Source: Minisyncoccota bacterium (GTDB lineage Bacteria; Patescibacteriota; Minisyncoccia; Phycocordibacterales; UBA2100). From it: a stretch of DNA of 64,000 nucleotides. The stretch is taken from assembly GCA_018060545.1 (NCBI GenBank), contig JAGOVW010000003.1:343-64342 (forward strand), read 5' to 3'. Shown here piece after piece: positions 6,608-28,954 of the stretch. The translations under genes were made by a program, and so were the position numbers. The first letter of the stretch is position 1. Every line of letters begins with the position of its first letter. The notes under the pieces were generated by a model that worked only from the letters and a program-made list of their open reading frames with translations, did no database searches and was not told the DNA's origin.

Positions 6608-9600
6608 CTAATCCGAGGTCGCAATGAATGTATTTGTCCCTTGGTGCAATTCGGCTTTTGTACCTGTTGGCACATTCAATCCCCAGTACACATCATCGGA
6701 ACTTGGTGACGTGGACGCGGTCGTCTTTGGAAGGTCCACTTCCACGTTTGTCGCAGAGCCAGTAAGGAATTGGCAGATTGCACATGCACCGTACGTGAAC
6801 GTACTCGTGGCAAATTTTTGTTCGCCAACCGCAATAGAGCCTTCAGAACCCGCCAAATCAGTGCCCGCGACCTGAATATCAATACTTGAGTTTCCTGTGT
6901 TGAGAATCGTGGTCTGTTCATTCACGCCTGCCGTATTGCTTCCCACTTCAAGAGACCCGAAGTCAATATCGGCAGTGTTCACGGCCAATCCGAAGACCGT
7001 AAGCACCTCAACTGGCACGGCTATCGTATCAAACACGCGCTCGCCACTCGAATCCTGGATAAATACCCGGGCGAGCCAGTTTTCAGAAGGATACGCGCTT
7101 GGTGCATCGGTCGCTTCCGCAAAGTACTGAAGGTCGGCGCGGCAGCTCAGCGTACACGAGTTGCCAGCACAGTTACTAAACGAGCACGAAGTTGATGCCA
7201 CCTGATAGCAATTATTCTCGTCGGCGCTACAGGTTACGCCAACACCAGAGCGGTAAATGGTCGTAGTCGCAAATAGCAAGTCCGCGTACCCATTCAAATC
7301 GGTCACTGTTCCTGTGGCGTAGACCGTCGTCGTAGCTCCTTCGGTCAGAGTAATGCTCAAGTCGTTATTGAGATTAAACCCTGCAATCTCAGGAGTATGC
7401 AGGAGCGCGACTTCTGCCACGCGGTCATAGTTATCAAGATCAAGGCCACCATCGGAGGTGCGGAAACAGTATGCTGGGTCGGTTGCATTTGCCGTCAACT
7501 CGAAGTTGTACTCAACTTCCGTTGCTGCGTTCGCAGCAATAGTGGTACTTGAGGTCTGATTCGATGGATCTTCAATCACTTTTCCTAGTGAATATGACAA
7601 GTTCGCAGGGTAGCTGAGAAGACCGGCGGTACCTGCTTGGTCGGTATATTCAGCGGTCGTCGTCATACATGCAGGCGAAGAACCACATCCACCTGACGTA
7701 GTTGGTACGTCATTATAGTTGACGTACGGCACCGACTCACAGTTCAAGGCCGACCCCTTCGCTGCGTATTGTAGTCGGAAATTCTGGCTGAATATTGCAG
7801 CTCCCGTATTTTGAACTGAGAAGCGTAGGCGCACATTTTCCCCGATACTCTGTGCCGAGAGCGCTGTATCTTCAGCTGCTTTCCAGGTAGCACCTCCACT
7901 CCCTTGTTCTGCGCCAAATATGTATGTCGGCTCAACCTGCGTATAAGTGCGTACGCTGTAGAAATCCCATCCACCGTGCTGACCCCAGAAGGAGAAGCCA
8001 ACACCACCTGATGTATGCGTACTATCTGTTGCTGTAGTTGATGCAAACTCTGCCCCCGTGTCGTCATAGACCGTCGCTACGATGGTATTTCCTACATGCC
8101 AATCGACGACCACTTCGTACCATCCCGTGCTGTACGAAACCGTTGTTGACGCAATATGAGTGCCACTACCATCGTTTGACGTTACGTTCTTTGCAAGAAC
8201 CAGGCGATCGGTTGGGTACTCATCCAAACATACCGCATAGTTCGACCCTGATCCTCCGACACCAAAGAGCGTACATGGCTCATCATCCTGCGTTGAATCA
8301 ACATACTGGAAGAAGCGAATGGTCTTTCCCTGTGCGGTGAGTGACCCGGTGCGGCGAATACCGCTCGTCGTTTGATCAGCTGAGTTTGCTCCTGCATCGA
8401 GCCCGTACACGTAGTTGTGATTGAAGGTGGTGTCCGTATCAAACAGTGTCGTGTCACCCGAGTATTCAGAAATGTTGTCGTCCTCGAAATCATCGAAGTA
8501 GTCGAATACTGCCGTGCCGTCATCAGCCCCTGCTACGCCACCATTGCCGTAGTACATATATATAGTAGCCGAACCATTTGCTGCGAGAGTCGGCAGCTCC
8601 ACCCACACCGTAGACGAGACCGAGGCGGACGATTCTTCGCGCCAGTAGTTCAATAGCGTCGTACCGTCATCACTCGTAAAGCGCAAATCGTCGAAATCGC
8701 TCTGCATATCAGCATCGTAGGCAACCTGTATCTCAACCGGGAAGTTTGTGAACGCGGTAGAGGTACCGTTGGTCACCGCAATCTTCTGTCGCTTGCTCCA
8801 TGATGCGGAGTACCATTCGCTATCGAGCGCTCCCTCGGTCCCATCGTCGTTGCGCCATCGGTAGTGCTCTTGGCTCACAAACAAACAGGTACTATCATCC
8901 CATCGAACAGCGCCACAAGAATCCCCACCATCACTATCAAACGCTTCCCCGTCGTAGTTGCCGAGATGGTTGCTAAAGTCCCACGCCGTGATCGGGGATC
9001 CTGTACGTGTCACGTTGTACCCCGTAGAAACGCCTGTTGATGTAGCAAAGCGCACCGAGTCTACCTGCTTACTGGCGTTCGCATCAATTGCGCTCCCTGC
9101 GAGCGTGAGCATGGTTCCACCATCGGTAGAGAGTTCGAAATCACCATTGCTGAGCGAGGTAACTGTTGGCGAACCGGTGATGTTAAGACCGTTCGCGTCT
9201 GTATTGCGTACCTGATAGTAGTTCATGTTGAGGGTGCCCCCCGAGACCGCCCACGTGTAGGTGCCCGTTGAGCCATAAATGGCGATTGTGGTAGATGCTC
9301 CCGCCACACCAACTGCTTGTAGGCCACCCGTTCCAGAGATGGTCACTGAGGAGCTGGTCGCCACCCGCACATCCACCTGGCGTGAACTACCACCGAGCGC
9401 AACACCATCGAAATCGGTTGCATAGCTCCAGTAGTCTGAACCGGTTGAGCGTGCGTACTCACCCCAGATGTAGAGGTCACCATCAACCGCAGCGTGATCT
9501 TGTGAGTAGAGTGAGCCGGTTGAGTTCACCGTGGTGGTACCTGCTGAAGTGTTCCAAGAACGTACATCTGTATTAGCGCCAATAAGGAGCGTGTTGTATA

Positions 9601-12600
9601 CGTCCCCTCCTGCAGTCTTGGTATTCATGGAGTAGCTTGATGCAGAGTTGAGGTAGAGGTTAGAACCGGTCCAGGTAGTAGCAGAGCCACCGACACTATT
9701 AGTGAAGGTACCGTCAACCTCGAGCGTGATTCCAGGATTCAGAGTGAAACTATTCGCATTCGTGATAGAGAAACTACCACTTGAAGTAGCGTTTTCAGTG
9801 ATGGTCCAGCCACCTGAGGAGGAGTTGAATCGCGCACCGTAGAACAGCGATCCTCCGACCGCCACCGTCTTCCCTGTCGTGTTCGCATAGAACGCAACGG
9901 TCCCCGTGTTGTGGTTAAATGTGCCCGCGTTTGCAAATGATCCACCAACGGCGAAGATACCAGCTGGGAGTGTTGTTGAGCCAGTCGTGAGTGTAAAGTT
10001 ATTCGACGTGGTGGCATTCGTATCAAGGAATGTCCAGGCACCACCTGTACCATTGAGGACCAGATCGTAGAAGTTGGATCCACTCGCCTGAATCGTCTTC
10101 CCTATTGCCGCGGCCGTAAACTTGACCATACCTCCGTGGTGATTGAATGTGCCCGTATTCGCAAACGACCCGCCGACGGCAAAGATGCCGGCAGGGAGCG
10201 TTGTTGAACCAGCCGTCACCGTAAAGTTATTTGATGTCGTGGCATTAGTATCCAGGAAGCTCCACGCACCACCCGCACCATTTAATGTGAGGTTGTAGAG
10301 ATTTGAGTTATTCGTGCGAATGTTCTTGCCTATAGCTGCAGCATTTAGATACAGCGTGCCGTTGTTGTGCATAATCGTGCCTCCTGAATTATCGAAGGAA
10401 CCCGCAACACTGAGTGTGCCCGACGGCATGGTCAGAGTACCGTTTGTGACAGTTACGTCACCCGTTGTCGTCGCATTACCGCTGGCAAATGACCAGTTGC
10501 CTCCCACACCGTTGAACACCAGGTTGTAGAAGCTTGAACTCTGTGGGTTGATAGTCTTCCCTGTTGTTGTAGCGGTCAAGGTCACGGTAGAACTTGCGCT
10601 TGCAAAAGTGGCACCGCTTCCGAGTGTGAAGCTGCCACCCACGGCGTGCGACTGAGTCCCGGCGGCGGTGAGTGTCGCACCCGTCTGCACCTCTAGAGAG
10701 CCGTCCCATGCATTGCCCGATCCTCCAGAATTCACGGTAATGTTCCCCGCAGGTGCAAATGTCTTACTGTTCCAGACGATCAGTTTCTTTTCAGCGGGCA
10801 GTACCAATGTGTCGGTAACGGCATCAGTAGCGGTAAATGGAATATCACTATCATCATCCGCATCATAAATAACCATGTCAGCAATGTTGATAGGCGTTGT
10901 GTCTTCGTGGCGCACAATGACCCTGTTCTCGTAGAGATCCATGTCCGTAATATTGGTGATTGGGTCCACCGACACGTTTGCAGCGCGCACTCCACCGTTG
11001 GTATCCAAGAATACCGTGAGCGTATCTCCCGGATTAAAGAACACTCCCGTGATGCTGTACAACCCTGTACCATCACACGACGAGGTGTAACTCCCAGCCC
11101 CCTGGACCATCAAGCGAACCACCGGTGTTATGCCGTCACACACACTACTGACTGATGTTCCCTCGTCTGAGTAGACGTGGCCTTCAATAGTAATGTCTGA
11201 AGAACTATCATCCCAGCGAATATACCCTGGGTCCCCCGCAGGATCGTCGTTGAAACTTTCGCCATCATAGTTTCCGTAGTGCAAGTTGAACTTCCACGAG
11301 CTAGCAGTAGAACCCGTAGCACGCACGTTAAACCCGCTGGAAATACCAGTCGAGGTGGCAAAGGTGTTGCGTGTGAAAATCTTGAGTGGATTTGCAGTAA
11401 TCACACTCCCCGCAACAGTCAGCATCGTGCCGCCATTTACTGCAAGTTCGAAATCACCATTGCTGAGTGAGGTAACTGTTGGCGAACCGGTGATGTTAAG
11501 ACCGCTGGCATTAGTATTGCGCAGAACGTAGTACGACGCATTGAATGTTCCACCACTCACCGAGAACGCATACGCCCCTGTGCCCTGTACATCAATAGTA
11601 GTGGATGCCGCTGCGTCCCCGATGATATCGAGCAGACCGCCGCTATACGTGAGCGTACTCGAAGTCGCCACCCGCACATCCACCTGGCGTGAACTACCAC
11701 CGAGCGCAACACCATCGAAATCGGTTGCATAGCTCCAGTAGTCTGAACCGGTTGAGCGTGCGTACTCACCCCAGATGTAGAGGTCACCATCAACCGCAGC
11801 GTGATCTTGTGAGTAGAGTGAGCCGGTTGAGTTCACCGTGGTGGTACCTGCTGAAGTGTTCCAAGAACGTACATCTGTATTAGCGCCAATAAGGAGCGTG
11901 TTGTATACGTCCCCTCCTGCAGTCTTGGTATTCATGGAGTAGCTTGATGCAGAGTTGAGGTAGAGGTTAGAACCGGTCCAGGTAGTAGCAGAGCCACCGA
12001 CACTATTAGTGAAGGTACCGTCAACCTCGAGCGTGATTCCAGGATTCAGAGTGAAACTATTCGCATTCGTGATAGAGAAACTACCACTTGAAGTAGCGTT
12101 TTCAGTGATGGTCCAGCCACCTGAGGAGGAGTTGAAGTTCACCGAATTGAAGAGTGATCCCCCCGACGCTACCACCTCTCCTGTATCTGTAGAGTTGAAA
12201 AGCACACTACCGCTCGAATGGGTGAAGGTACCCGTATTGAGCCAGCTTCCACCGACATCGAGTGCGCCCACATTTGAAGCAACCAGTGTTGCCCCGCTTC
12301 CTATAGTGAGGTTACCCGTGACATTCGTTGATGGATCATTGGTGTTCAAGGTCACGGTTACCGGATTGGTACCATCGCCCACAACCAGGTTACCTGCGGT
12401 AAGTGTTCCACCTTGCACCGTGAACGTAGGCGATCCTGCAGCAGCCGGTGCCAAGTGCAGGAGCGCATAGGTTTCATCGAGAACACTCGTGGTGGTGGTT
12501 GCCACAAAACTAAATGGCGCTGTTTGAACAGTAAACGTTCCACCAACGACGAGTGGCGTACCACCACCCGTGAGTACCCACGCCGATGAACCCGCCGCTA

Positions 12601-15600: not shown

Positions 15601-18600
15601 CTTTGTTTCCGTTCTGATTGAGTGTGCCGTACGTAAGGTTTAATGCTCCATCTACATCGAGCGCACTTGAAAGGTTCCATGTTGCTGCACCTGATGTTTG
15701 CCCAAACGTGAGGTTATAGAATGTCGTCGTAGTAGCCCCAGTACCATCAATGGTTTCCGTCGTTGACGTTGCTGTCAGGATAACGGTTGAGGTGTCTTTC
15801 GTGAATGTGCCATTATTGTCCCACGAACCAGTTGCGGTAATGGTGTTGCCGTCAGCAGTAAAGTACCCATTCAAAACCAGGTCATGAGTCGTCACGTTTC
15901 CACCTGACGTAGAATCAGGCCTAAACGTTGTGGAGCTTGCCACATACAGTTTTACCTGCGTGCATTCAGCCAGTCCACATGCAGCAAAGTCGTTGCCCGC
16001 ATCAACTTCAAAGAAGATGTCTTCATCGCCAGAAATCGAGTTGTCGTACTGGGAGATGTTCGCGTTGGTCATGGTTGGCACGTCTTGTGACCCCAGCGAG
16101 ACGTGCTGTTCAAAGAGTTGCATGCCCGTTATGTCTCCCGTTCCGTCGTATACGGTGAGCGCCACTGCTTCACTGTTGTCTGCCGCACCATCAACGAAGA
16201 CGGTAATAACATCGCCTGCAAATGCGGTCACGCTCGGGATACTCCAAGCCCCAGCTGAAATAGTACCCGTCTTTCCAGCTTGCAGCACCCCGTTTACGGC
16301 AACGGCGACGGTGCCGCTCGTCACGTTCGTCGTTTCGTCGTACTGCTTCGCGGTTCCTGAAAGGGTGATACCGTCAGACCATTCAATCGTCCAGTCGTTG
16401 AGCGATGGACAGATACCTGCCGCACAGGCAAGGTTCGCAACGAGGCGAATCTGGTTGTAGGTGATGCGATTGAGGTTGGAAATATCAAGCGGCGACGTAG
16501 ATGTTCCAGTCATGTTGCCCGCCAAATCGACGTTTGGAATCACCGCCCATGAACTGGTCGAAGTAAAGTATTCGATTTGGTACAAAATATCAGACGCGCC
16601 TGGCGTTGAATCGCTAAACAAGAGCCGTTGCCATTTTGGTCCCGTACCACTATCAAAATCTAACTCACTCGACGTGATAGTCCCTGAGTTAAAGGTTGGG
16701 TAGCGGCGCGCAACAATATCCAATGGAATCGTTGCAGGAGTAAGTGTCGGTATAGAGTTAGTTTCTATGATCTGCGCCGTGGACCACTGCGTACCGTTCC
16801 AGTAGCTGAAATCGTACTGTGTGTCACCATCGTTGTACGTGAGTGCCAATATGTTTCCGTCCCCTGTGCGCGCACTGCGTACTTCCCACGAGTCTCCTAA
16901 GGTCGAGATTTGTGCTGGTGTCGTAGCTGATCCAGATCCGGTCCAATACTCATACTCCACTATCAAGCTATCACTGTGCATCATCATGAGATACCCATCG
17001 CGTCCCGCAGTGGTTTCAAACTCACATGAGACTGGTCGGGCATGGAACCCGTTGGTTGTGTTACCGGTCCCCTCAAACTCGGCAAACGTATTCCATCCCG
17101 AACCACTCCACTCTAAGAATCCAAGATCGCTATCAATATCGATATAGCAGAGGCCCATGCGATCACTCCCGACATCACGGACCAGACGACCGTTCGCGAA
17201 ATCGTTTTGCACACCGGCAGTGTTGGTACCGTCCCACCCACTACCGTTCCATGCGTTCCAAATGAAGTTGTTGTTTGCTCCGTTTGCAACACCAACAACT
17301 GCCTGCCCACCTGATTCCTCATACTCCACAAACATACCTTCGGCATTGGCGACCAACTGTGAACCCATGGTCATCGGACTCACACCCCATGCTGTACCAT
17401 TCCATATCTGCGCCTCATAGTCGGTGGCACCCGCAATGGCGCTGCGCACCACTAATACCATTTCATCGGACGCTGGGTCGGCCGCCAGACGTACCCATTC
17501 ACAGTTCCCCGTGGTACCGAGCGCAATACTGCTGGTTGCAGTCCAGCTGGTACCATTCCACACACTAAACACCGCCTCTGTACCACGACACGAAACTACC
17601 ATCGCATCGCCGGATGATGTTTCGTATGCCACATCGAAGCCACGCGCTAGAGCATTGGCCACGGTGGACTCAACTTCCTTAATATTGCCGAATGAATCCG
17701 TTGTCCCGTTATATACCTGCGTCTTCACGACACCCGTCGAACCTAATGTGCCTACAATATACTCATCGCGCGTCGGCGACGCTGCAGCTTCGACAAAGCG
17801 AATGGTGTCACCGGTTGATACACCACTCAACTCACTACCCCACGCCGTACCGGTCCAGATCCGGTAGCGAGGTGCCTGCGTCGTACCTTCGGCGTACGCC
17901 ATGAACGCCTCACGGATTGTTGTAGAGATGCGCGCAATATTGCTGCCGTACGTTTCAACTGAACTCAAGGTATCGGTCTCAAATTGATCATCGGTTGTCT
18001 GGAACCACGTCGAGACAGTCACTGATGTATCTATGGTGAAGCTTTGCAAGTCAGACCACACGGACCACACTCCGGCGCCTGGCGCTGGGTCGATCGCACG
18101 CACACGCCACCAATACGTAACTCCGTTCGTGAGCGCATCTGCTTGCTGGAGGTGGAATGCAATCGAGTTGTTGTCCTTAAATGGTGATGTGTCCGTACTT
18201 GATGCGGTATTGGTAAAGCCACTATGAAGATCGGAGCGTCTCGTGGTTGATGCGGTGAAATCTTGCGTCGTAGAAATAGACACTTCGTAAATCAAGCTAT
18301 CGTTCTGAGGGTCATCAGATCCAAATCTAAACGTTGGCGTCGTGGTGCCGACCTTCTCGTTATCGAACGGAGCGGTGGATGTCGCCTGTCCTACTGCGTA
18401 GCCCCATGAAACCGTCCAATCATTCAATCGCGGAGAGCCGCCGATACTCGTCAGGTTTGCGCGCACTCGAATCTGGTTGTATGTCGTAGGACTCAGTGAG
18501 AGGAGCGACACTGGTGAACCACTACCGAATCCTGCATGGTTACCACTCAAATCCGTATCAGGGACCGTCACCCACGCTGCACTCGAATCTAAGTACTCAA

Positions 18601-21600
18601 TGTGGTAGCGGATATCACCCGTCGTCTCATTGTCGGTCCAGCTCAAGGACCCCCACGCATTTCCCGACGAACCATTGTCGAAATCGATGGCTGAACTCGT
18701 TGTTGTTCCGAGCGTAAGTGGCGGCGTAAGCACCACATCATGTGTTGATGTTGCCTCTGTATCCTCAAACGAGTTGGTATCAAATTGTTCGAGTCGTGTC
18801 TGGTGCCAGGTTGCTACTGTAATCGACGTATCGACCGTAAGACTATAGATGGTTGACCAGCTACTCCAGGTGTTTGAGTTGTTGCGATCTTTCGCACGCA
18901 CACGCCAGTAGTAGGTGGTACCGTTTGACAGTGCAGTCGTGGGAATAAAGCGTATCGTTTGCCCTGCGGTAAATGGATCCTTGTCGGCAGGAGTGGTGAC
19001 GTTACTGAATTCAGTGAAGTTCGTTTGCGAGTCACGATCAACTACCGCAGAGCTGAAGTCATAGGTGTCATCTATTTGCACCTGATAGGTCATATCGTTG
19101 CTCTCAGGATCTTCCGCAGTGAATTCAAACCACGGCGTCGTTGACGCTGTCTTCTCGTTGTCGAAGAGCTTCATTAGGCTCGGTGCAGTTGGCTTAGCGT
19201 TCGTGACCAGAGCAGGATAGGTACTGTACGCATTGAGCGTTTCTCCTTCTGACGTAATGACACGGAAGCAGTAGTTGGTGCCTTCTGTAGCATTGTGCTG
19301 CAACACCCAATCCCACTCACCTTCTTGCGTCGTACTGATTGAATTGGGGTTCGTGGCAGAGTCATTCTCTTCCTCGTACGTCGCAGCAACGTCAGCAGTG
19401 GTAAGGAGAACAGATGGAAGGGTTGCTCCGTCGGAAACACCAGCATTGTTGTATCCTCGCCACGGTGCTGTCGTAGAACCAATTTCTCCCACCTCGAACC
19501 ACTCCGAGCCGGCGCTACAGTTTGCATCTGCTGCGTACTGCAACGTTAAGGACAGTGCGCTACTCGAGAGGGCGACGTTCGAGACGAGTATGGTCATACG
19601 CAGACGCAACACATCGTTCAAGCTTGGCGCACCATCTGCAATTTGAATCGCCGCATCAGTCACCACTTCGCTGGCACCCGACGGCCATACGTCACTCGGC
19701 GTTGCTGCGTTCGTGTTTACATACCATCGGTAATGCTCCTGCGTCAGATACGGGCTGCGCTCCCACGAGAGCGTCCAATCGGTAAGAGACGGTACGTAAG
19801 TGTTTGACGAGGTGAGCGTTGCTTTCAAGCACAGGCTGCTGTACGTCGTGGTCGAGACACTGGACAGGTCAATCGGGCTCGCACTAGCCTGGAAGCCAGT
19901 GCTATTTCCCGTAAGAACTCCGTCAGGCAATAACGACGAACACACACCACCTGATTCATACATCACCTGTACAGTAACGTCGGTACCACTTGGCTCGTTT
20001 GTGCTCCACAACGCTTCGCCCCAGGTAGTGCGATTCGGCACACTTGAAAATGCAATCGGGTCCGACTGAATAGTTCCTGAGTTTGATTGGTACACCTTGG
20101 CTGCAATAGAGATGGGCTCCCTAAATGGCGCGGCGGTCACCGACGGAGAGTTTTCAAGTGTTTGCGCAGCCGACCATGAGGTACCGTCCCAGTAAGAGAA
20201 ATCAAACAGACCATTGAGATCGTCGTGATAGAGCGCAAGGATGTCGCCATCACCAGCTCGTGCCGAGGTTACTCTCCATGAGTCTTGGATAGTAGGCAGG
20301 GTACTTTCTCCGGAGTGAGCTGTTCCATTCCAATACTGTGATCGCGCTGCGGTGTTGTCGCTGTATGGAATCATCAGGTACCCATCGCGTCCCGCGGTCG
20401 TTTCAAATTCACAGGTCACTGGCGTACCTTCGATGGTGCCACTTCCTGCACGGTTGTTCGTTGTTCCTGTTGTTTCAAATTCATTCGTTGCTGCAGCAAA
20501 CACTGCCCAACCCGCACCATCCCAAATAAGGGAGCCCATGTCGTCGTCCTGATCGCCATAACAGAGACCCAACTGGTCGGACCCGTCGTCCTGCCGGAGG
20601 ATTCCCCACTCAAAGTCATTTCCGATTGCCTGAGTCGTTGGTATGCTCCAATCCAAGAGTGCGCCGTCCCACGTCGCCCATGCAAAATTTGCGTTGCCGG
20701 CATTTGAAACTACCACCATCGCCTGCTCTCCCGACTCTTCGTATTCCACCGCGATACCTTCGTGTGCCGCATCGCTCATTGAACCAAGCGTCTGCGAGAA
20801 GGACCATCCACTTCCATCCCACACCTGCGCTTCGTATATCGAGCCCGTGTTGCGCTCGACCAAAATAATCTCATCAGATACAGGATCGGACGCGAGCTTA
20901 ATATATTCACAGTTGAGCGCACTGCCTATATTAATACTGGTAGGCCCGGTCCAGACGCTACCGTTCCACACGTAGTAGGCAGGATCAGCATCACCGTCAC
21001 AGAAAACGACAAGCGCATCACCTGATAGGGTTTCGTACGCAACGTCAAACCCGCGACGTTGGTTATTCGCAACACCGGCCGTCACTTCTTGCAGGTTTCT
21101 CCATGTTGTGGTTGTGGCGCTAAATATTTGCACATTAACGTCGTTTACTGCGTCTTGTGTCGCGAGTACAAATTCATCGCGCGTTGTCCCAGCCTTCGTC
21201 ACCACATACTGAATGATGCCGCCCACATCGAGTGCCGAACCTTCCGAGCCCCACGCCGTACCGTCCCACAAGCGATAGCGTGGTGTAGTAACGGTGCCTT
21301 CACCGTACGCAACGAGCGCATCGTCAGGTGGCGTGAGCGACAGCTCAGCTGCGTTGTTCCCCGACGTTTCAACACTACTGAGCGTACCCGTTTCAAATTG
21401 AGTATCTTGTGTTTGGAACCACTGCGATGGATCGGTGTTGGCTACATAGGTAAAGCTTTGCACAGTACTCCATTCACTCGCCAAATTCGATCCACTTACA
21501 TCAGTTGCTCGTACGCGCCAATAGTACGTGGTTCCAGACACCAGAGAGGTAGGAATCGTAAAGCGAATTTGCTCACCTTCGTTGAACGGGCTGGTGTCTG

Positions 21601-24600
21601 CGGGTGTTGCAATGTTTTGGAAACAGTTTGGCGAGCACCCTGTTTCCACATCAGACGATCGATCCCCAATTGGTGCATCATCGAGCGTTGGATCATCGTC
21701 CCACTGTATCTGGTACAAAATGCTTGAGGTTCCGTCTGGATCGCTCGCACTAAATCTAAAGCTGGGCGTTGAACTCCCCGTCTTCTGGCTTTCGAAAGGT
21801 TCGCCATAGAGCGTTGGTGCATCAGTCGGATAGTTTGCCGCAGCCCAATAACCGAGTAATCGGAATTGATCGTTGGTGGTGTCGTCAGTGAAATACTCAA
21901 TGGTTGAACTCGCATCAGAACCTGCCTTCACGTGGGCCTTACCGATAGACCATCCACCTGTTTCAGCCTCATGAATATTAAAACTACGACCCAGCGTCGA
22001 TGCGTTCGTACGTGCACCAATAATCATTGAGCTGTTCGCATCCGCTGCGTTTGCGTACAAAACTTCCGCGATGCCCGTAGGTGGCACCGTAAAACCGTCA
22101 AGTGCGCGGTCAGTCCACGTAGAGGCCGAGGTCGGACCACCCAAGTCGTCAAATCGCTCGGTGTAGAGCAGACCTGTTGGGCTCGTCTGCCAATACCCCA
22201 TCAGCCAAAAGTCGACACTGGCACCGTTGGCTCCCTTCACTTGGGCAAATCCCTCAATAGTTGCATTAGTGGAACTTGCACGCACCATCATGGTGACACC
22301 GTTTACACCATTCGCTTCTGATTCGTGAATGTTGGCGAGGCGAGACAATGACGAGCTCGCTGCACGCACACCAGCATTCATTTCTGCAACCGTATCCCAG
22401 TTACCCAATGCCATTTCAACGACGTTCCCATGCGAAACACCGTAACTCGAGAGGTTAATAATGCCCCACGTATTGTTCGTAAGCGTAGGGTCAATTTGGG
22501 TGAAGCTCTCGACATACCGACCATCAGTCCAGTATCCCAAAAGCACAAAGGAGATGTTGGTTGTATCTTCAGCGTAGGTCTGAATACTCGATGTAGCAGA
22601 AACCTGCACGTGCATCGTCATCATCGTGACACCTGATGGTTCTGCTTCATGCAGCTGGAAGCGCCGGTCGTTGGTAGAGGTCGAATGGCGCACACCACCA
22701 TACACCTCCGTATTGAAGTCACCATTCACTACTGCAATTTCGGCTACTGCGTTTGCTGGAACACTAAAGGGAGCACTCGCAAGATTCTTCTCTTGCCATG
22801 CACCAGCGACCGTCGGTGTCCACGAACTGTACTTTTCTTGGTAGGAACCAAGTGCGTCTGATGCCACTTTCCAGGTACGTAGCTCCTCAAACGCAACCGC
22901 ATCACCTTCTTTCATGGTGAGAGGACCGAACACGTACAGATACGGGCTGATATCGGGCGAATCGAATACGTACGAAATGACCTTCGTCTCACCTGCTGCC
23001 AGTGCCACATCCCACGACAATCGAATCGCGCCATTGTACTGTTCAACGGACCCATCCGCCTTATCAACCAGAATCGTATCTTCTGGAATCGCCTCGGTGA
23101 TGACACCTTCAAAATCACGCCGTGCCGTAATAGAGAGTGTCATACGGTATGGCTCTTTTGGATAAATTCGCGTTGGCCCGCTGCGCTCCACAACAAACGA
23201 AGGATCGTTGCGGACTTCAAATGCATCGTTGATGCGGTGGAGCACTTCACCCGCTTCTCCAAAGTGAGTGAGGGTCATTGCGTACGTTCCAATGCCACCA
23301 GTCACGTAATCAGCCAAGTAGTCGGCAACATCGACTACGTTGTTGTGCCCGCAGAGCCCCGACGTACGGATAGGCACTTCTTGTTCCGGGCCTTCGGGTG
23401 CTTGTACGAGAAGTTGAAGATGTGCGTCGCAGAGCGTGTCACCGGTATCATCCAAGGCCGCCATCATCAACGCAGCGTTCTCTCCTGGCTCATATACGCT
23501 TTTGTGCGAGTTGATGGCGAGTACGCCCCAATAAAATTCCACCGTGTCGGTAAAGGTGTTACGACCTTCAACAATCACGACCTCCATCTGATATTTACCG
23601 GGGCGGAAACCGCGAGGTTTTTTGGTCAGGGTCAGCGTCCACTCACCGCTTGAGTCATAGATAATATCAACGGGGACCGTCTCGAATTGACCATCAGTGT
23701 GCTTCAGTCGTGCTTGTCGTACAGCAAACGTATCCTTCTTCCCGAGTAGTCGATCTGCAAAGCGCGCAGCAAACGAGCGCTGAGAATTAAATTTGAATCG
23801 AAACTGAGGCTGCTCGTTTCCTTCAAATTGTGACTTTTCAGAAAGTTTTCGGTTCACCTTCTTTGCAGCCACGTCACGCTCGGCAGCTTCTTCTTGCGCG
23901 AGCCAATCGCGTTCGTTACGCAAGAAACGCATGTCAATGTCGCCATAGTATCGTTCACCAGAAGCTTGCAAGATAAGCGGATTCTCTCCTCCATTTGGGA
24001 GCGCCGTCGTCACACGGAAATAGACTGTTTGCTCAGGTAATACAAGAATTCGTTCAGCAACTACCGACGTAGTGACAAATCCTTCCGGAAGAGGGCTGAA
24101 GAGCGCCCAATCAATCCCTGGTACTCCAATTGCAAGTGGCACCCATGTGCTTTGGTATGCGGTCTGCTTCTCCGTACCAACCAGCACGTGCGCAACAGTA
24201 CAGTTTTCCTTGGTGTCATTAAACCATGCACACTGCTCGACCTGCCCCGTTGCGACACAGCGGTGCCGCCCTTCCTCATCCACTGCTTCAGTCCACCCTC
24301 CTTCACAGAAGAACGTCACGTCTTCATACACTGAGTGCTCGACTACCTCGGGTACGTTGCGCAAAAACTGCGCGATGCTCTTGAGCTCACCGGATCCTTG
24401 TGGGAATGCTGCTGAAAGCTCAAAGTATTCTTCCTCGCGACCAGTGTTGGTAACACTCACAAAAAACTGTTTCTCTACAGACGCACCATCCCCCGGAAGT
24501 ACTTTTGCGCTTGATGCGTCGGTGCGCATGGTGAGCACATCCTCATCGATATCATCAACGAGCGGAAATGAAATTGCAGACCCGTCGTCAAGCACGAGCA

Positions 24601-25897
24601 TCGTCTCATCTGCGTCGCTTTCAGAGAGGTCAAATTGAACGTTGTCTGATACTTCTGGATGCGCCGGTCCTTCGCCATCAATCACGTCTTGTGCCCGCTC
24701 TTTGTACAATGCGTCAATCCATAATGCATCGAGAAACAGCTGCTGCGATCCGGAACCATCGGCACGAACATACTCGAGCATCACCCGTGCCCCTTGAAAA
24801 TCTTCCCACGTGTCAATTTCATCAAGCGCCACTGAGAAAAAGCCGTTGTTGGTGTGGTTTGACAACTCTTTGTTAAGAAAAATTCCACCTGCTTCCTTCC
24901 ATCGGCCGTCCACAAAATAGCGCGCAACAACGTTGTCTTCCGCTCCTTCAAAAACCGGCTCATCACCTGCAAAAGAAAACACCAGCTCTGCTCCTACAAA
25001 AGGCTTCTCGGCCAAATCACCATACACACCAAAGCCTGAAAATTCGATAGTGTGGCACGGTGTACCATCGATGACACAGGTCGATATGTCTGGCGCTTGA
25101 GAGTGTGATGGAGTCGCTGCGTTTGTAGGCTCATTCTCTGTAACGGTCACCACCTCGACCGCAGCGTCTTGCTTGGGTGTGGTTGTTGACGTGACGTCTT
25201 CCAATTCCACACCATCGGTCGTTGTTGCAAATACAGGTGTGGTAAGTAGTGAAAGCAGTGAAAATGCGCCCTCACGTACAGCAAACGCAAGTGGCAGGGT
25301 GCTTCCGTCGTTCATACTCGTTGGCTCACTTATCACAGCAGGGACAACTTCAGGAGCAGCGTCAGGTACAACACTCTCAGTACTCTCTGCTTCCTGTGGT
25401 ACTACCACTTCTTCTGCCGCCGTGTCTTCAGGCACGGCGTCTGCTGTGCCCGCTTCTTCATTCGCTCCACCATCGATTACATTCGTAGATGTTTCCTGCG
25501 CAGGAGAAGCCTCCACGTCAGCATCGTTGTGTGTCGTGGATTCCACAACATCATCAACAGGAACGTCGATTGAGGTTGTCTCGGGCAGTGCCTCAGAACT
25601 TTCACCATGAATTACTGGGGCTTCAGAAGGCACCTGAGCATCTGCGCGAACGTACGCAGCAATATCTTCAGTAAAGCTTGCACGCACCGCATCCTCGGAA
25701 AGATCCTGAGTCAGTGCCTTCTCTGGGGCGTGCCACCCTTCTGCAGTAACAACAGTTGGGAAAATGTGCGCACGCTTCACCTCACGATACGCCATAACAA
25801 ACGAACTGGTCGCCCATAAGGTATAGCCAAGAATACCCAACACCACAGCGGTGACGGTGATAAATTTCCACGGGATTTTTGCAGTGCGAGGACTCAT
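6608..25897 (-). CDS. Giant (6429 aa) membrane-anchored surface protein. After the N-terminal TM anchor comes an acidic/Pro-rich linker, then FN3-like modules (TTYYWRVRA motifs), then long beta-helix/Gly-Thr-Ser-rich repeat tracts and a Cys-rich C-terminal region.
   Basis: A single uninterrupted 19.3-kb ORF. It has an N-terminal signal-anchor (ITVTAVVLGILGYTLWATSSFVMAY) and three FN3-like 'F..EKT..TP.F.F...DP....YQ.Q.D....F' + 'YYWRVRA' modules. Internal near-identical ~158-aa repeats (GSLYSQDHAAVDGDLYIWGEYARSTGSDYWSYATDFDGVALGGSSRQVDVRVATSS occurs twice) and a good 3rd-position GC bias are also present. Confidence 0.85.
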   Translation of the reverse strand: MSPRTAKIPWKFITVTAVVLGILGYTLWATSSFVMAYREVKRAHIFPTVVTAEGWHAPEKALTQDLSEDAVRASFTEDIAAYVRADAQVPSEAPVIHGESSEALPETTSIDVPVDDVVESTTHNDADVEASPAQETSTNVIDGGANEEAGTADAVPEDTAAEEVVVPQEAESTESVVPDAAPEVVPAVISEPTSMNDGSTLPLAFAVREGAFSLLSLLTTPVFATTTDGVELEDVTSTTTPKQDAAVEVVTVTENEPTNAATPSHSQAPDISTCVIDGTPCHTIEFSGFGVYGDLAEKPFVGAELVFSFAGDEPVFEGAEDNVVARYFVDGRWKEAGGIFLNKELSNHTNNGFFSVALDEIDTWEDFQGARVMLEYVRADGSGSQQLFLDALWIDALYKERAQDVIDGEGPAHPEVSDNVQFDLSESDADETMLVLDDGSAISFPLVDDIDEDVLTMRTDASSAKVLPGDGASVEKQFFVSVTNTGREEEYFELSAAFPQGSGELKSIAQFLRNVPEVVEHSVYEDVTFFCEGGWTEAVDEEGRHRCVATGQVEQCAWFNDTKENCTVAHVLVGTEKQTAYQSTWVPLAIGVPGIDWALFSPLPEGFVTTSVVAERILVLPEQTVYFRVTTALPNGGENPLILQASGERYYGDIDMRFLRNERDWLAQEEAAERDVAAKKVNRKLSEKSQFEGNEQPQFRFKFNSQRSFAARFADRLLGKKDTFAVRQARLKHTDGQFETVPVDIIYDSSGEWTLTLTKKPRGFRPGKYQMEVVIVEGRNTFTDTVEFYWGVLAINSHKSVYEPGENAALMMAALDDTGDTLCDAHLQLLVQAPEGPEQEVPIRTSGLCGHNNVVDVADYLADYVTGGIGTYAMTLTHFGEAGEVLHRINDAFEVRNDPSFVVERSGPTRIYPKEPYRMTLSITARRDFEGVITEAIPEDTILVDKADGSVEQYNGAIRLSWDVALAAGETKVISYVFDSPDISPYLYVFGPLTMKEGDAVAFEELRTWKVASDALGSYQEKYSSWTPTVAGAWQEKNLASAPFSVPANAVAEIAVVNGDFNTEVYGGVRHSTSTNDRRFQLHEAEPSGVTMMTMHVQVSATSSIQTYAEDTTNISFVLLGYWTDGRYVESFTQIDPTLTNNTWGIINLSSYGVSHGNVVEMALGNWDTVAEMNAGVRAASSSLSRLANIHESEANGVNGVTMMVRASSTNATIEGFAQVKGANGASVDFWLMGYWQTSPTGLLYTERFDDLGGPTSASTWTDRALDGFTVPPTGIAEVLYANAADANSSMIIGARTNASTLGRSFNIHEAETGGWSIGKAHVKAGSDASSTIEYFTDDTTNDQFRLLGYWAAANYPTDAPTLYGEPFESQKTGSSTPSFRFSASDPDGTSSILYQIQWDDDPTLDDAPIGDRSSDVETGCSPNCFQNIATPADTSPFNEGEQIRFTIPTSLVSGTTYYWRVRATDVSGSNLASEWSTVQSFTYVANTDPSQWFQTQDTQFETGTLSSVETSGNNAAELSLTPPDDALVAYGEGTVTTPRYRLWDGTAWGSEGSALDVGGIIQYVVTKAGTTRDEFVLATQDAVNDVNVQIFSATTTTWRNLQEVTAGVANNQRRGFDVAYETLSGDALVVFCDGDADPAYYVWNGSVWTGPTSINIGSALNCEYIKLASDPVSDEIILVERNTGSIYEAQVWDGSGWSFSQTLGSMSDAAHEGIAVEYEESGEQAMVVVSNAGNANFAWATWDGALLDWSIPTTQAIGNDFEWGILRQDDGSDQLGLCYGDQDDDMGSLIWDGAGWAVFAAATNEFETTGTTNNRAGSGTIEGTPVTCEFETTAGRDGYLMIPYSDNTAARSQYWNGTAHSGESTLPTIQDSWRVTSARAGDGDILALYHDDLNGLFDFSYWDGTSWSAAQTLENSPSVTAAPFREPISIAAKVYQSNSGTIQSDPIAFSSVPNRTTWGEALWSTNEPSGTDVTVQVMYESGGVCSSLLPDGVLTGNSTGFQASASPIDLSSVSTTTYSSLCLKATLTSSNTYVPSLTDWTLSWERSPYLTQEHYRWYVNTNAATPSDVWPSGASEVVTDAAIQIADGAPSLNDVLRLRMTILVSNVALSSSALSLTLQYAADANCSAGSEWFEVGEIGSTTAPWRGYNNAGVSDGATLPSVLLTTADVAATYEEENDSATNPNSISTTQEGEWDWVLQHNATEGTNYCFRVITSEGETLNAYSTYPALVTNAKPTAPSLMKLFDNEKTASTTPWFEFTAEDPESNDMTYQVQIDDTYDFSSAVVDRDSQTNFTEFSNVTTPADKDPFTAGQTIRFIPTTALSNGTTYYWRVRAKDRNNSNTWSSWSTIYSLTVDTSITVATWHQTRLEQFDTNSFEDTEATSTHDVVLTPPLTLGTTTSSAIDFDNGSSGNAWGSLSWTDNETTGDIRYHIEYLDSSAAWVTVPDTDLSGNHAGFGSGSPVSLLSLSPTTYNQIRVRANLTSIGGSPRLNDWTVSWGYAVGQATSTAPFDNEKVGTTTPTFRFGSDDPQNDSLIYEVSISTTQDFTASTTRRSDLHSGFTNTASSTDTSPFKDNNSIAFHLQQADALTNGVTYWWRVRAIDPAPGAGVWSVWSDLQSFTIDTSVTVSTWFQTTDDQFETDTLSSVETYGSNIARISTTIREAFMAYAEGTTQAPRYRIWTGTAWGSELSGVSTGDTIRFVEAAASPTRDEYIVGTLGSTGVVKTQVYNGTTDSFGNIKEVESTVANALARGFDVAYETSSGDAMVVSCRGTEAVFSVWNGTSWTATSSIALGTTGNCEWVRLAADPASDEMVLVVRSAIAGATDYEAQIWNGTAWGVSPMTMGSQLVANAEGMFVEYEESGGQAVVGVANGANNNFIWNAWNGSGWDGTNTAGVQNDFANGRLVRDVGSDRMGLCYIDIDSDLGFLEWSGSGWNTFAEFEGTGNTTNGFHARPVSCEFETTAGRDGYLMMMHSDSLIVEYEYWTGSGSATTPAQISTLGDSWEVRSARTGDGNILALTYNDGDTQYDFSYWNGTQWSTAQIIETNSIPTLTPATIPLDIVARRYPTFNSGTITSSELDFDSGTGPKWQRLLFSDSTPGASDILYQIEYFTSTSSWAVIPNVDLAGNMTGTSTSPLDISNLNRITYNQIRLVANLACAAGICPSLNDWTIEWSDGITLSGTAKQYDETTNVTSGTVAVAVNGVLQAGKTGTISAGAWSIPSVTAFAGDVITVFVDGAADNSEAVALTVYDGTGDITGMQLFEQHVSLGSQDVPTMTNANISQYDNSISGDEDIFFEVDAGNDFAACGLAECTQVKLYVASSTTFRPDSTSGGNVTTHDLVLNGYFTADGNTITATGSWDNNGTFTKDTSTVILTATSTTETIDGTGATTTTFYNLTFGQTSGAATWNLSSALDVDGALNLTYGTLNQNGNKAINVASNMTISTNGVFTKGTATTTFDGTGSSTFTDNTVAKQDMGIVTVDGSTKTLLLGAASKMTDVTIGADDILSVNNNYALEVLGNFINNNSFVAQSGTVTFTATDTGNTITPGTSSFYNMTFNGVGGNWAFTGSTLTAGNNFTIATGTVTMPTATTTVTGNFDNTGGTFMHNNGILLLNAASAKTIRTNGSSLYDTVFNGTGSWSFLETTATSSRHVTLTAGTVTLPSGTFAIGGSLSKNGGTMTHNSGTLRFTAATAQTIRLNGSDVYNLTFNGTGGSWSFVDTHATATNAIRIEQGALTLPSGVFAVGGSWLSSVGTFTHNSGTVKFNSTDSGESINPGASPFYSMSFDAVGGGWTIASHATSTNNTSITRAASFTLASGQTLEVGGTFTNSMGGATTTWTGSTLFLNSGTAYSVNTKAQSGDTYETLRIGANTDIKLWNSSASGYTVDATGSLYSQDHAAVDGDLYIWGQYTPTGNEFWSYATDFDGTALGGSSRQVDVRLGSGASVFVGSNTLQILGGSAASTTVANQGSGTYALQVGTGATLQAQYYQVRNTDANGLWISGTATVNNLSDGDFELGTNGGTMITVAGTAIDQNPALQIQRGAFATSTGISSGFNVVATGTPTSYWWFRNHSGNYDGEDYDTDPTGNPGNVRWDNSGFSITVSGNVYASEGSGAIGNPPCDGSAVVRIVVDGGSAYTGTCDGGTGAYSIPGVSFAGDAVLTAYLNTNGGKRAVTVTKTPTADITNLDLYENTLIVRHEDTAAITIANLALYDSSNDADIFFTAATGSPDTLTVAPENELHILAGKTFAPGGNITLESGGSGDARDGRLHVGVGSTFTGAGTESHAIGGGLVIESSGTFTPANTTLTLTATTTGKVLSTVSPLTLYNLVLNGVGGGWLLSGTGTTTVQNGLTLTAGTLGGTGDLVVQSGDVAGAGTITMTGGTVRIESTGNFANSNPWQFRNLTLGNGVAARTTTKTGSATTTVAGTLTVAANHTLAAGSSAWVLTGGGTPLVVGGTFTVQTAPFSFVATTTTSVLDETYALLHLAPAAAGSPTFTVQGGTLTAGNLVVGDGTNPVTVTLNTNDPSTNVTGNLTIGSGATLVASNVGALDVGGSWLNTGTFTHSSGSVLFNSTDTGEVVASGGSLFNSVNFNSSSGGWTITENATSSGSFSITNANSFTLNPGITLEVDGTFTNSVGGSATTWTGSNLYLNSASSYSMNTKTAGGDVYNTLLIGANTDVRSWNTSAGTTTVNSTGSLYSQDHAAVDGDLYIWGEYARSTGSDYWSYATDFDGVALGGSSRQVDVRVATSSTLTYSGGLLDIIGDAAASTTIDVQGTGAYAFSVSGGTFNASYYVLRNTNASGLNITGSPTVTSLSNGDFELAVNGGTMLTVAGSVITANPLKIFTRNTFATSTGISSGFNVRATGSTASSWKFNLHYGNYDGESFNDDPAGDPGYIRWDDSSSDITIEGHVYSDEGTSVSSVCDGITPVVRLMVQGAGSYTSSCDGTGLYSITGVFFNPGDTLTVFLDTNGGVRAANVSVDPITNITDMDLYENRVIVRHEDTTPINIADMVIYDADDDSDIPFTATDAVTDTLVLPAEKKLIVWNSKTFAPAGNITVNSGGSGNAWDGSLEVQTGATLTAAGTQSHAVGGSFTLGSGATFASASSTVTLTATTTGKTINPQSSSFYNLVFNGVGGNWSFASGNATTTGDVTVTNGTLTMPSGTLSVAGSFDNSGGTIMHNNGTLYLNAAAIGKNIRTNNSNLYNLTLNGAGGAWSFLDTNATTSNNFTVTAGSTTLPAGIFAVGGSFANTGTFNHHGGMVKFTAAAIGKTIQASGSNFYDLVLNGTGGAWTFLDTNATTSNNFTLTTGSTTLPAGIFAVGGSFANAGTFNHNTGTVAFYANTTGKTVAVGGSLFYGARFNSSSGGWTITENATSSGSFSITNANSFTLNPGITLEVDGTFTNSVGGSATTWTGSNLYLNSASSYSMNTKTAGGDVYNTLLIGANTDVRSWNTSAGTTTVNSTGSLYSQDHAAVDGDLYIWGEYARSTGSDYWSYATDFDGVALGGSSRQVDVRVATSSSVTISGTGGLQAVGVAGASTTIAIYGSTGTYTWAVSGGTLNMNYYQVRNTDANGLNITGSPTVTSLSNGDFELSTDGGTMLTLAGSAIDANASKQVDSVRFATSTGVSTGYNVTRTGSPITAWDFSNHLGNYDGEAFDSDGGDSCGAVRWDDSTCLFVSQEHYRWRNDDGTEGALDSEWYSASWSKRQKIAVTNGTSTAFTNFPVEIQVAYDADMQSDFDDLRFTSDDGTTLLNYWREESSASVSSTVWVELPTLAANGSATIYMYYGNGGVAGADDGTAVFDYFDDFEDDNISEYSGDTTLFDTDTTFNHNYVYGLDAGANSADQTTSGIRRTGSLTAQGKTIRFFQYVDSTQDDEPCTLFGVGGSGSNYAVCLDEYPTDRLVLAKNVTSNDGSGTHIASTTVSYSTGWYEVVVDWHVGNTIVATVYDDTGAEFASTTATDSTHTSGGVGFSFWGQHGGWDFYSVRTYTQVEPTYIFGAEQGSGGATWKAAEDTALSAQSIGENVRLRFSVQNTGAAIFSQNFRLQYAAKGSALNCESVPYVNYNDVPTTSGGCGSSPACMTTTAEYTDQAGTAGLLSYPANLSYSLGKVIEDPSNQTSSTTIAANAATEVEYNFELTANATDPAYCFRTSDGGLDLDNYDRVAEVALLHTPEIAGFNLNNDLSITLTEGATTTVYATGTVTDLNGYADLLFATTTIYRSGVGVTCSADENNCYQVASTSCSFSNCAGNSCTLSCRADLQYFAEATDAPSAYPSENWLARVFIQDSSGERVFDTIAVPVEVLTVFGLAVNTADIDFGSLEVGSNTAGVNEQTTILNTGNSSIDIQVAGTDLAGSEGSIAVGEQKFATSTFTYGACAICQFLTGSATNVEVDLPKTTASTSPSSDDVYWGLNVPTGTKAELHQGTNTFIATSD
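9357..9829. repeat. Intragenic repeat copy A: 473-bp core identical to 11664..12136, part of a ~2.3-kb tandem unit inside the giant gene
   Basis: Direct comparison of the two stretches. They are identical from gtcgccacccgcacatccacctggcg... to ...ccacctgaggaggagttgaa at an offset of 2307 bp. Confidence 0.8.
11664..12136. repeat. Intragenic repeat copy B (identical core to 9357..9829)
   Basis: Same as copy A. The flanks are similar but diverged (e.g. 9121.. versus 11431..). Confidence 0.8.
14089..14560. repeat. Intragenic repeat copy C: diverged (~80% by eye) third unit of the same tandem repeat
   Basis: cgcacatccacctggcgcgaactgccaccaagcgc...ccatcgaaatccgtcgcatagctccag aligns with copies A and B at offset ~2415 bp. 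The protein-level repeat is GSLYSQDHAAVDGDLYIWGQYTPTGNEFWSYATDFDGTALGGSSRQVDVRL. The end coordinate is approximate. Confidence 0.55.
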
Positions 25898-27621: not shown

Positions 27622-27665
27622 ATTGATGCGTAGCGCATCGCGAGAGCACTCTGCACACAGCAACG

Positions 27666-28145: not shown

Positions 28146-28209
28146 AGTGTGGTGAGGTCCATCGCTGGTACACAAGTGATTATAGCGGTGCATCATGCAA
28201 CGCAATGCG

Positions 28210-28855: not shown

Positions 28856-28954
28856 CGAAACAGTATACCCGCACACCTTGCGCCGCCAAGCGCCAACGGT
28901 GTGCGGGTATATCTGCATGTCAGCAGTACCGGCAAAAAAACGCAGCCCGCCGCA

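Follow-up and report, generated by a model that had tools for sequence, protein, structure and literature searches.

A giant gene of Paceibacteria and its modular product

We analysed a stretch of 64,000 nt from a Minisyncoccota bacterium (assembly GCA_018060545.1, contig JAGOVW010000003.1, positions 343 to 64,342), hereafter the window, which carries a single giant open reading frame (ORF) on its minus strand at 6608..25897. The ORF starts with ATG and comprises 6,429 codons without an internal stop or an N base; at ~52% GC, the chance of a stop-free run of this length is (61/64)^6429, or ~e^-309. Its product is listed by NCBI as MBP9668907.1, a 'DUF2341 domain-containing protein' from a metagenome-assembled genome (MAG) of Candidatus Pacebacteria/Paceibacterota bacterium, and an independent NCBI gene call on contig JAHZTO010000632.1 (GCA_020049755.1) gives the identical 6,429-amino-acid (aa) product. 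The ORF is thus a genuine, intact and already deposited protein of Paceibacteria (Candidate Phyla Radiation (CPR)/Patescibacteria), yet it is effectively uncharacterised. An earlier description made from the letters alone, the sequence-only reading, had proposed one contiguous 19.3-kb, 6,429-aa ORF in a small-genome bacterium. Its coordinates are exact, the strand that it did not give is minus, and the organism is indeed a CPR member, Paceibacterota. Horizontal transfer of the gene was considered and rejected, its GC content of 51–54% being level with the flanks.

A module map was drawn from chunked self-BLAST, Pfam and two AlphaFold2 (AF2) structure models; whole-protein self-BLAST returned the identity match only, and chunked BLAST was used instead. 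Three features of the map were absent from the sequence-only reading, namely two ~560-aa propeller blocks, a DUF2341/LamG-like tip and a 473-nt perfect repeat. From N- to C-terminus, the modules are as follows.

25796..25864, minus strand: N-terminal transmembrane helix/signal-anchor, aa 12-34 (hydropathy)
25088..25720, minus strand: acidic Ala/Val/Thr/Pro-rich low-complexity spacer, aa 60-270 (composition)
22898..25090, minus strand: conserved membrane-proximal globular region, aa 270-1000 (homologs; Cys pairs conserved)
21803..22930, minus strand: three tandem ~110-115-aa repeats, aa 990-1365 (self-BLAST, 30-35% identical)
21398..21820, minus strand: FN3-like module 1, aa 1360-1500 (Ig_Rha78A_N match; motif)
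19718..21430, minus strand: propeller block 1, aa 1490-2060, a seven-bladed beta-propeller followed by a beta-sandwich (AF2 model)
19178..19750, minus strand: 'QEHYRW' beta domain, aa 2050-2240 (motif, homologs)
18785..19186, minus strand: FN3-like module 2, aa 2238-2371 (self-BLAST, motif)
between FN3-like modules 2 and 3: a ~100-aa beta-domain, aa ~2400-2500
17978..18394, minus strand: FN3-like module 3, aa 2502-2640 (self-BLAST, motif)
16328..17980, minus strand: propeller block 2, aa 2640-3190 (43-50% identical to block 1)
8888..16330, minus strand: Ig-like modules and T/G/S/N-rich repeats, aa 3190-5670 (self-BLAST, periodicity)
11664..12136, minus strand: 473-nt perfect in-frame repeat, N-proximal copy, aa 4588-4745
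9357..9829, minus strand: 473-nt perfect in-frame repeat, C-proximal copy, aa 5357-5514
6611..8890, minus strand: distal C-terminal module, aa 5670-6429 (DUF2341, ConA/LamG-like domain, Cys-bonded Ig-like domains)
8468-8698, minus strand: DUF2341 (Pfam PF10102), aa ~5734-5810 (79.1-80.5 bits against a cut-off of 23.4)

The propeller blocks resemble fucose lectins in fold

The AF2 model of propeller block 1, built on a 41-sequence alignment, has a predicted local distance difference test score (pLDDT) >90 over residues 40-430. Its 28 strands make up seven four-stranded blades with a beta-sandwich after them, and a W(D/N)GxxW motif is conserved in every blade. Using Foldseek against solved structures, the top matches were all fucose lectins of the PLL/PHL/PLL2-5/BP39L/CV39L type, with E values of 1e-13 to 1e-10 and template-modelling scores of 0.63-0.68, and the next matches were kelch domains and the AFL/AOL/RSL fucose lectins. 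PLL lectins hold sugars between the blades via per-blade Trp residues (PMC6943638). The two kinds of propeller share the seven four-stranded blades and the conserved Trp in each; PLL lectins, however, are small soluble proteins of ~350 aa, whereas here the propeller is a module in a giant protein with a beta-sandwich after it. The modelled propeller resembles PLL lectins in fold and motif logic only, and its sugar binding is predicted by this analogy.

The W(D/N)GxxW seven-bladed propeller represents a large domain family that Pfam leaves almost wholly unannotated. It comprises 3,644 cluster representatives at E<=1e-3 and 1,698 at E<=1e-30, and it recurs up to 12 times in other giants (up to 7,926 aa) and in ~550-aa proteins (P0115-P0304). 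Many of these ~550-aa homologs (P0129-P0158) begin like pilins, with an archaeal RG/VSNI... or a bacterial G/FSxLE motif (the slash marks the cleavage site). At locus L092 (2255-7647), a propeller homolog lies directly after genes for a PilB-like ATPase, two PilC-like proteins and a classic archaeal pilin. The Pfam scores for the pilin motifs are sub-threshold (N_methyl 20.6 against 21.2 bits; Pilin_N E 0.36), and they were used for the pilin assignment only together with motif inspection and the operon context of L092. That the same propeller heads ~550-aa proteins with type IV pilin-like N-termini supports an adhesive role for the giant protein.

The pilin-like homologs and the pilus-operon context, together with the combination of Pilin_N with DUF2341 in homologs P0083, P0092 and P0109, could also mean that the giant protein is itself a type IV pilus-associated component, presented by pili or docking onto them. 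We regard this as very unlikely, as its N-terminus has neither a prepilin G/F...E nor an archaeal [KR]G/[AVS] cleavage motif, the conserved operon described below contains no pilus genes, and ~650 kDa is implausible for a pilin subunit.

A conserved beta-sandwich and lectin-like tip

The AF2 model of the distal C-terminal module (55-sequence alignment) is all-beta, with a pLDDT of 93.2. Its Foldseek matches are the beta-sandwich arrays of integrin legs, alpha-2-macroglobulin (A2M) and RbmA, and it also matches ConA/LamG-type lectin domains, including the thrombospondin C-terminal domain, a GH43 C-terminal domain and the lectin domain of galactocerebrosidase. The lectin-like fold of this tip and the likeness of the propellers to PLL fucose lectins together favour a role in binding or adhesion. 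No enzyme or toxin fold was found among the structure matches of the tip model, and the PDB sequence search with the module gave nothing meaningful. A C-terminal toxin was rejected, the tip being a conserved beta-sandwich/lectin array.

The sequence-only reading had described the distal region as Cys-rich. This is overstated, although the underlying observation holds: the last 555 aa contain 14 of the 46 Cys residues of the protein, and all 14 are invariant or >=90% conserved among 55 homologs, a conservation that would fit extracellular disulfides. It had also noted that LPXTG and autotransporter C-terminal signatures are lacking, and both statements stood up. The regular expression LP.[TSA]G finds no match anywhere in the giant protein, which ends in ...TNTFIATSD, and the last 760 aa are beta-sandwich domains (pLDDT 93) with no beta-barrel. 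The sortase-anchored and autotransporter classes of surface protein were rejected on these grounds.

Anchor, spacer and FN3-like modules

At the opposite end, hydropathy identifies aa 12-34 as the sole transmembrane-grade hydrophobic segment in the giant protein, in agreement with the signal-anchor of the sequence-only reading; a second hydrophobic stretch, aa 6288-6306, is a beta-strand in the structure model. The N-terminal ~100 aa are kept in homologs, with aa 5-117 being 36-51% identical to P0002, L086, L088, P0168, P0230 and P0287. The spacer after the helix corresponds to the acidic/Pro-rich stalk of the same reading (A 14.7, V 12.8, T 12.3, E 11.8, S 9, D 8.5 and P 8.1%; net charge -38). 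It is not conserved among homologs, and its length varies.

The membrane-proximal region gave nothing meaningful in the PDB sequence search. NCBIfam yielded no match, and Pfam at E<=10 offers a weak MG2-like beta-sandwich hint near aa 798-838 and one weak CBM_6-like match in the repeats of aa 990-1365, neither of them significant. The three FN3-like modules, which the sequence-only reading had recognised by their YYWRVRA-type motifs, are mutually 39-43% identical and carry TYYWRVRA at aa 1459 and 2330 and TYWWRVRA at aa 2596. Module 1 matches Pfam Ig_Rha78A_N (PF25788) above threshold in two stretches (49.4 bits against a cut-off of 27.4), and module 2 has a sub-threshold Pur_ac_phosph_N match only. 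The HYRW motif of the QEHYRW domain is seen again at the start of the C-terminal module.

The giant protein belongs to a widespread family

The C-terminal module is the part of the family that was recovered most widely. Its 760 aa retrieve ~70 clusters (90% identity) at 40-65% identity and full coverage, almost all of them 'partial' contig-end fragments from Paceibacteria, Minisyncoccia, Parcubacteria and Kaiserbacteria MAGs. In a scan of one genome per GTDB species, the module was present in 87 species genomes, which include Kaiser-, Adler-, Nomura- and Lloydbacteria and the closed chromosome CP060229.1. Of the 50 loci that have a complete 10-kb upstream flank, 46 keep the ORF open through the whole of it (>=4,090 aa), CP060229.1 among them. 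The giant gene is evidently common and usually broken by assembly.

Searching with the N-terminal half, we found three colinear giants, P0001 (5,614 aa), P0002 (4,160 aa, partial, Paceibacterota) and P0003 (5,661 aa), and one partial relative, P0004. An exhaustive profile search recovered nine further full-length members of 5,625-7,456 aa. All nine have the N-anchor, proximal region, FN3, propeller, Ig and repeat block, with the C-terminal module at the end, and the N-terminal segment is strongly hydrophobic in seven of them (Kyte-Doolittle (KD) maximum >2.0). Judged by these homologs, the 6,429-aa protein is typical of a widespread family, with members of 5.6-7.5k aa, that had not been characterised before.

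Some relatives differ in their modules. P0001 carries additional DUF2341/LamG inserts. P0002 and P0003 are without propellers and have in their place another repeated module of ~450 aa (aa ~1040-1500 and ~2100-2570 of P0002 and the equivalents in P0003), which has no counterpart in the 6,429-aa protein. Binding modules are evidently exchanged within a fixed scaffold.

Several individual loci deserve mention. In L004/L030 (GCA_041389005.1, JAWKSR010000001.1) and L091 (ERZ1714332 contig_782), the orthologous giant gene is shattered into short same-strand ORFs, which reflects either long-read indel errors or genuine pseudogenisation. Internal stops also occur in the giant gene of L060 and L078. 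L060 (JBLIMJ010000001.1) contains a full Paceibacteria-type operon under the label 'Acidimicrobiales bacterium' and is probably a mis-binned contig. For many CAY... and CAZ... loci the label reads 'uncultured Candidatus Saccharibacteria', apparently a default of the catalogue and not a true placement.

Repeat region and intragenic gene conversion

About 2,300 aa, or 36% of the protein, are built of 76-77-aa T/G/S/N repeats with the consensus GKTI..S.FYNL.FNG.GG.W.F...GTVTLP.G...V.G.F.N.GG.F.HN.GTV.F. The units are nested in three super-repeats of ~770-800 aa each (aa 3718-5670), and the composition is rich in T (13%), G (10.1%), S (10%) and N (6%). The sequence-only reading had pointed to periodic G/T/S/N-rich repeats, and the unit now gives this a defined period. 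The PDB sequence search with an 803-aa repeat block and a 76-aa unit profile found no meaningful match. The beta-helix of the sequence-only reading is a putative fold, drawn from the unit consensus and its period-2 hydrophobicity, and the region is presumed to be a rigid beta-solenoid shaft; tandem small beta-sandwiches are a possible alternative fold.

Within this region lie the two in-frame copies of the 473-nt perfect direct repeat, offset by 2,307 nt. Orthologous in-frame tracts are found in three other loci: 467 nt at 100% identity and an offset of 2,307 in L007 (6771-7237/9078-9544), 447 nt at 100% and an offset of 2,409 in L079 (1133-1579/3542-3988), and 296 nt at 99.7% and an offset of 2,313 in L066 (7016-7311/9329-9624). 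Compared between species, the same near-identical tracts are only 71-79% identical. Since identity at the orthologous position reaches 99.7-100% within species and falls to 71-79% between them, the pattern indicates recurrent intragenic gene conversion (concerted evolution) of one ~155-aa segment in four species, and not misassembly.

It could nevertheless be argued that the 19-kb ORF itself is an assembly artefact or a pseudogene, created by repeat collapse or expansion or by a chimeric join. A 473-nt perfect repeat inside the gene is the kind of sequence that invites this suspicion, as do the database members, most of them contig-end fragments, and the shattered genes of L004/L030 and L091. 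We find this barely credible. The ORF is free of stops and N bases, and relatives of 5.6-7.5k aa are known in full length. Block number and order are the same in P0003 (aa 3100-6429) and P0001 (aa 3713-6429), which are colinear with it at a near-constant offset through both repeat copies. This colinearity, together with the orthologous tracts in three species, which lie at nearly the same offset and differ by 21-29% from one species to another, argues for a genuine repeat structure. The same colinear domain order in independently assembled homologs bears out the sequence-only reading in taking the ORF as a single gene, and not a join of unrelated ones.

A conserved operon with a type VII ABC

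The giant gene lies in a run of genes between 29632 and 1428, all on the minus strand and separated by 1-197 nt. A cyclophilin gene heads the run upstream of the S26 peptidase, and this neighbour is not conserved. The other neighbours are listed in the order of the run.

28271..28918, minus strand: signal peptidase I (S26), conserved upstream neighbour
27666..28214, minus strand: HSP20 small heat-shock protein, conserved upstream neighbour
26095..27663, minus strand: 522-aa cohesin membrane protein, conserved upstream partner
5930..6574, minus strand: 214-aa N-terminally anchored protein, no Pfam match, closest subclade only
5552..5914, minus strand: 120-aa two-transmembrane protein, closest subclade only
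3988..5472, minus strand: secreted 494-aa multi-FN3 protein, signal peptide ...AQA/AE
2640..3986, minus strand: ABC ATPase (LolD/MacB/YtrE-like)
1428..2636, minus strand: type VII ABC permease (MacB_PCD + FtsX) with a large extracytoplasmic domain and four transmembrane segments

The FN3 protein is encoded downstream of the giant gene in 73 of 74 loci, and the FN3, ATPase and permease genes follow it with order and strand kept in 66 of the 67 loci with >=7 kb of sequence. Upstream, the S26, HSP20 and cohesin genes are present in all five loci recovered with the N-terminus (5/5; L002, L086/L087, L088, L089). The 522-aa protein consists of a signal peptide, a cohesin domain (Pfam, 37.7 against 24.1 bits), a Pro-rich linker, a C-terminal transmembrane segment and a charged cytoplasmic tail. 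Promoter and terminator scans around the giant gene were not above shuffle expectation, so we make no claim about the transcription unit beyond gene spacing. Cohesin paralogs that are 26-35% identical to the 522-aa protein were observed ~9-10 kb downstream of the giant gene, beyond the ABC genes, in L007, L012, L013, L015, L017, L018, L058, L066 and others, and the conserved cluster may extend past the window end.

The permease matches MacB_PCD and FtsX in Pfam at 77.4 and 69.7 bits. Its KD windows lie at aa 23-41, 261-279, 275-293, 312-330 and 367-385, and the overlapping windows at 261-293 were counted as one helix, which gives the four transmembrane segments. The closest solved relatives in the PDB are YtrF, MacB, Spr0695 and LolC/E for the permease and MJ0796, LolD, MacB and YtrE for the ATPase. 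The pair shares with MacB, LolCDE, FtsEX, YtrEF and BceAB the MacB_PCD + FtsX topology and the LolD/MacB-like ATPase. It differs from the characterised type VII members in an extra ATPase C-terminal domain of ~220 aa (residues ~230-448), which is conserved across the family loci and has no Pfam or PDB match. No membrane fusion protein (MFP)- or TolC-type partner of the ABC was seen, the 214-aa anchored neighbour not having been checked as an adaptor. By homology, the linked ABC is a type VII (MacB/YtrEF/LolCDE-like) mechanotransmitter and not a type I secretion exporter, and it would therefore not be the export route of the giant protein. The sequence-only reading had named an adjacent ABC exporter; an ABC does exist, but it lies four genes downstream of the giant gene, is of the MacB type and is not a protein exporter. 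To our knowledge, a strict linkage to a giant surface protein has been described for no characterised type VII ABC.

An alternative in which the ABC does take part in secretion would have the protein released, as an exoprotein or a toxin-delivery filament, in the manner of FhaB/CdiA or RTX proteins. The very large, repeat-rich beta sequence and the linked ABC would suit it, and other giant Patescibacteria proteins match the FhaB COG (PMC11809585). However, the protein has no two-partner secretion (TPS) domain, RTX repeats, toxin or enzyme fold, its C-terminus is a conserved beta-sandwich/lectin array, its N-terminal transmembrane helix is conserved, and the ABC is of type VII and not an ABC_membrane/C39 exporter of type I secretion. 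Together, these features make the alternative highly improbable.

Elsewhere in the window, a GmrSD-type restriction endonuclease gene (61968-63812) occupies the only low-GC stretch (41.8% against ~52%) and adjoins a truncated tRNA at the window edge (63934-64000); the region is possibly a small defence island. The gene at 37924-39453 encodes a 509-aa protein that combines an M23 peptidase domain with two PG_binding_1 domains. It is a candidate for degrading cell walls, an activity proposed to serve Paceibacteria in host attack or attachment.

Attachment fibre or structural envelope component

The reading that we favour, with a probability of roughly 0.6, is that the giant protein is a multivalent sugar-binding, membrane-anchored attachment fibre of Paceibacteria with a conserved ABC-linked operon. 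In such a fibre, the short N-terminus would be cytoplasmic and the helix at aa 12-34 would serve as a Sec signal-anchor (N-in/C-out), with the rest outside the cell; Sec-dependent export through this anchor would be the simplest route. The acidic spacer would cross the wall, and the repeat region would form a shaft holding the lectin-type modules far from the cell, with a fibre length that may, as a rough estimate, lie in the 100-nm range. The two propellers and the DUF2341/LamG/Ig tip would act as multivalent glycan-binding heads, the target being a partner or host envelope or a polysaccharide. The ABC would convert cytoplasmic ATP hydrolysis into mechanical work on an extracytoplasmic partner, as with MacB, LolCDE and FtsEX, and this partner would plausibly be the FN3 protein, the conserved membrane-proximal part of the giant protein, or both.

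A number of points weigh against this reading. Expression, surface location, ligand binding and the adhesin or epibiotic-attachment role, which the sequence-only reading had also put forward, are wholly inferred, and the adjacent S26 peptidase may cleave the N-terminal helix. The likeness of the propeller to PLL lectins is generic, with 13-16% identity in the structural alignments; the propeller has no PDB sequence match at E<=1, and there is no sequence-level link to PLL lectins. The repeat region, more than a third of the protein, matches nothing in Pfam, NCBIfam or PDB sequence searches. For the cohesin protein, no dockerin was found by Pfam match or motif in the giant or any operon protein, and what ties the ABC to the giant protein is synteny alone. 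Finally, host-specific adhesins are often hypervariable, whereas the tip is evenly conserved, at 45-55% identity like all other modules, an evenness that would suit a conserved ligand just as well as a structural role.

This last point leads to the main alternative, a structural envelope component that binds the cell's own wall polymers, for instance a scaffold spanning the wall, an S-layer-like coat or a shape/division fibre, which would be serviced by a YtrEF/FtsEX-like ABC and would not be a host adhesin. Its strictly colinear module order and even conservation are unlike fast-evolving adhesins, and the locus is conserved in at least 87 species, with one locus recovered per genome. The S26 peptidase and HSP20 are housekeeping-like neighbours, and the closest solved relative of the permease is YtrF, part of a cell-wall-stress operon. 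On the other hand, the lectin-like propellers, the LamG/ConA tip and the occurrence of the propeller on pilin-like proteins point to external ligands; the propeller swaps in P0002/P0003 and the recurrent gene conversion are more typical of interaction proteins; and Pfam finds no peptidoglycan-binding or SLH-type domain. On this evidence, we consider a structural role unlikely and keep the attachment fibre as the preferred interpretation.

A further-reaching proposal is that the fibre, the FN3 protein, the cohesin protein and the type VII ABC together form an undescribed, lineage-wide, ATP-powered surface apparatus that captures hosts. We put this forward as a speculation that is doubtful at present.

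Relation to known surface proteins and significance

Giant modular adhesin-like surface fibres are a known kind of thing. The RTX adhesins secreted by type I secretion systems (T1SS), such as LapA, MpIBP, FrhA and SiiE, are giant fibres with an extender region and distal lectin-type binding domains. They have RTX repeats at the C-terminus as well as a T1SS signal, leave the cell through an ABC_membrane-type exporter with MFP and TolC, are retained in the outer membrane via the N-terminus, and are often broken in short-read assemblies. The giant protein is like them in its giant modular layout, extender and lectin-type domains at the distal end; it is unlike them in its N-terminal transmembrane anchor in the cytoplasmic membrane, its type VII ABC and its C-terminal binding tip. 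The RTX/T1SS class was rejected, there being no HemolysinCabind/RTX Pfam match and the ABC being MacB-type, and so was the two-partner secretion class, with no TPS (Haemagg_act) Pfam match in aa 1-3333 and a transmembrane helix as the N-terminus. The SPEARE proteins of Nanohaloarchaeota and the giant ORFs of Omnitrophota are proposed host-contact proteins with protease, nuclease and cell-wall hydrolase domains. The giant protein is, like these, a very large multidomain surface protein of an ultra-small organism, but no enzymatic domain was detected in it. New here is the combination of an N-terminal membrane anchor, PLL-like propellers, a DUF2341/LamG tip and an obligate type VII ABC linkage.

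Within the phylum, the Patescibacterium danicum paper counted 149 NCBI Patescibacteria proteins >4,000 aa, 82 of them with FhaB and/or DUF2341 domains, inferred adhesion or host interaction for them and suggested domain reshuffling by homologous recombination (PMC11809585). Those proteins share phylum, size class and DUF2341 with the 6,429-aa protein, and the gene-conversion tracts fit that idea of recombination and reshuffling. The paper found its own proteins to lack full-length homologs and described neither a family nor an operon nor structures; a colinear family, a fixed operon and module folds are defined here. In cultured Paceibacteria-methanogen pairs, microscopy shows extracellular material of uncharacterised nature where the cells touch their hosts (PMC10936435), and attachment in the phylum is put down to type IV pili alone in a 2026 review (PMC13293708). 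No description of the family, its propellers or the ABC-linked operon was found in the literature searched.

Paceibacteria are a very large class of CPR/Patescibacteria, and the present findings bear on how they attach to their hosts. The giant gene is the largest gene in genomes of ~1 Mb and is usually invisible in MAGs, since assemblies break inside it. It offers a clear case of recurrent intragenic gene conversion, and its propeller belongs to an unannotated family of ~3,600 cluster representatives that also occurs on pilin-like and other giant proteins. With the giant gene and a MacB-type ABC motor in one operon across at least 66 species, testable candidates for an attachment apparatus are at hand. 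If the proposed apparatus is real, a MacB-like permease would mechanically deploy, tension, release or remodel a lectin-tipped fibre, and Paceibacteria would possess host-attachment machinery separate from the type IV pili now credited in the phylum.

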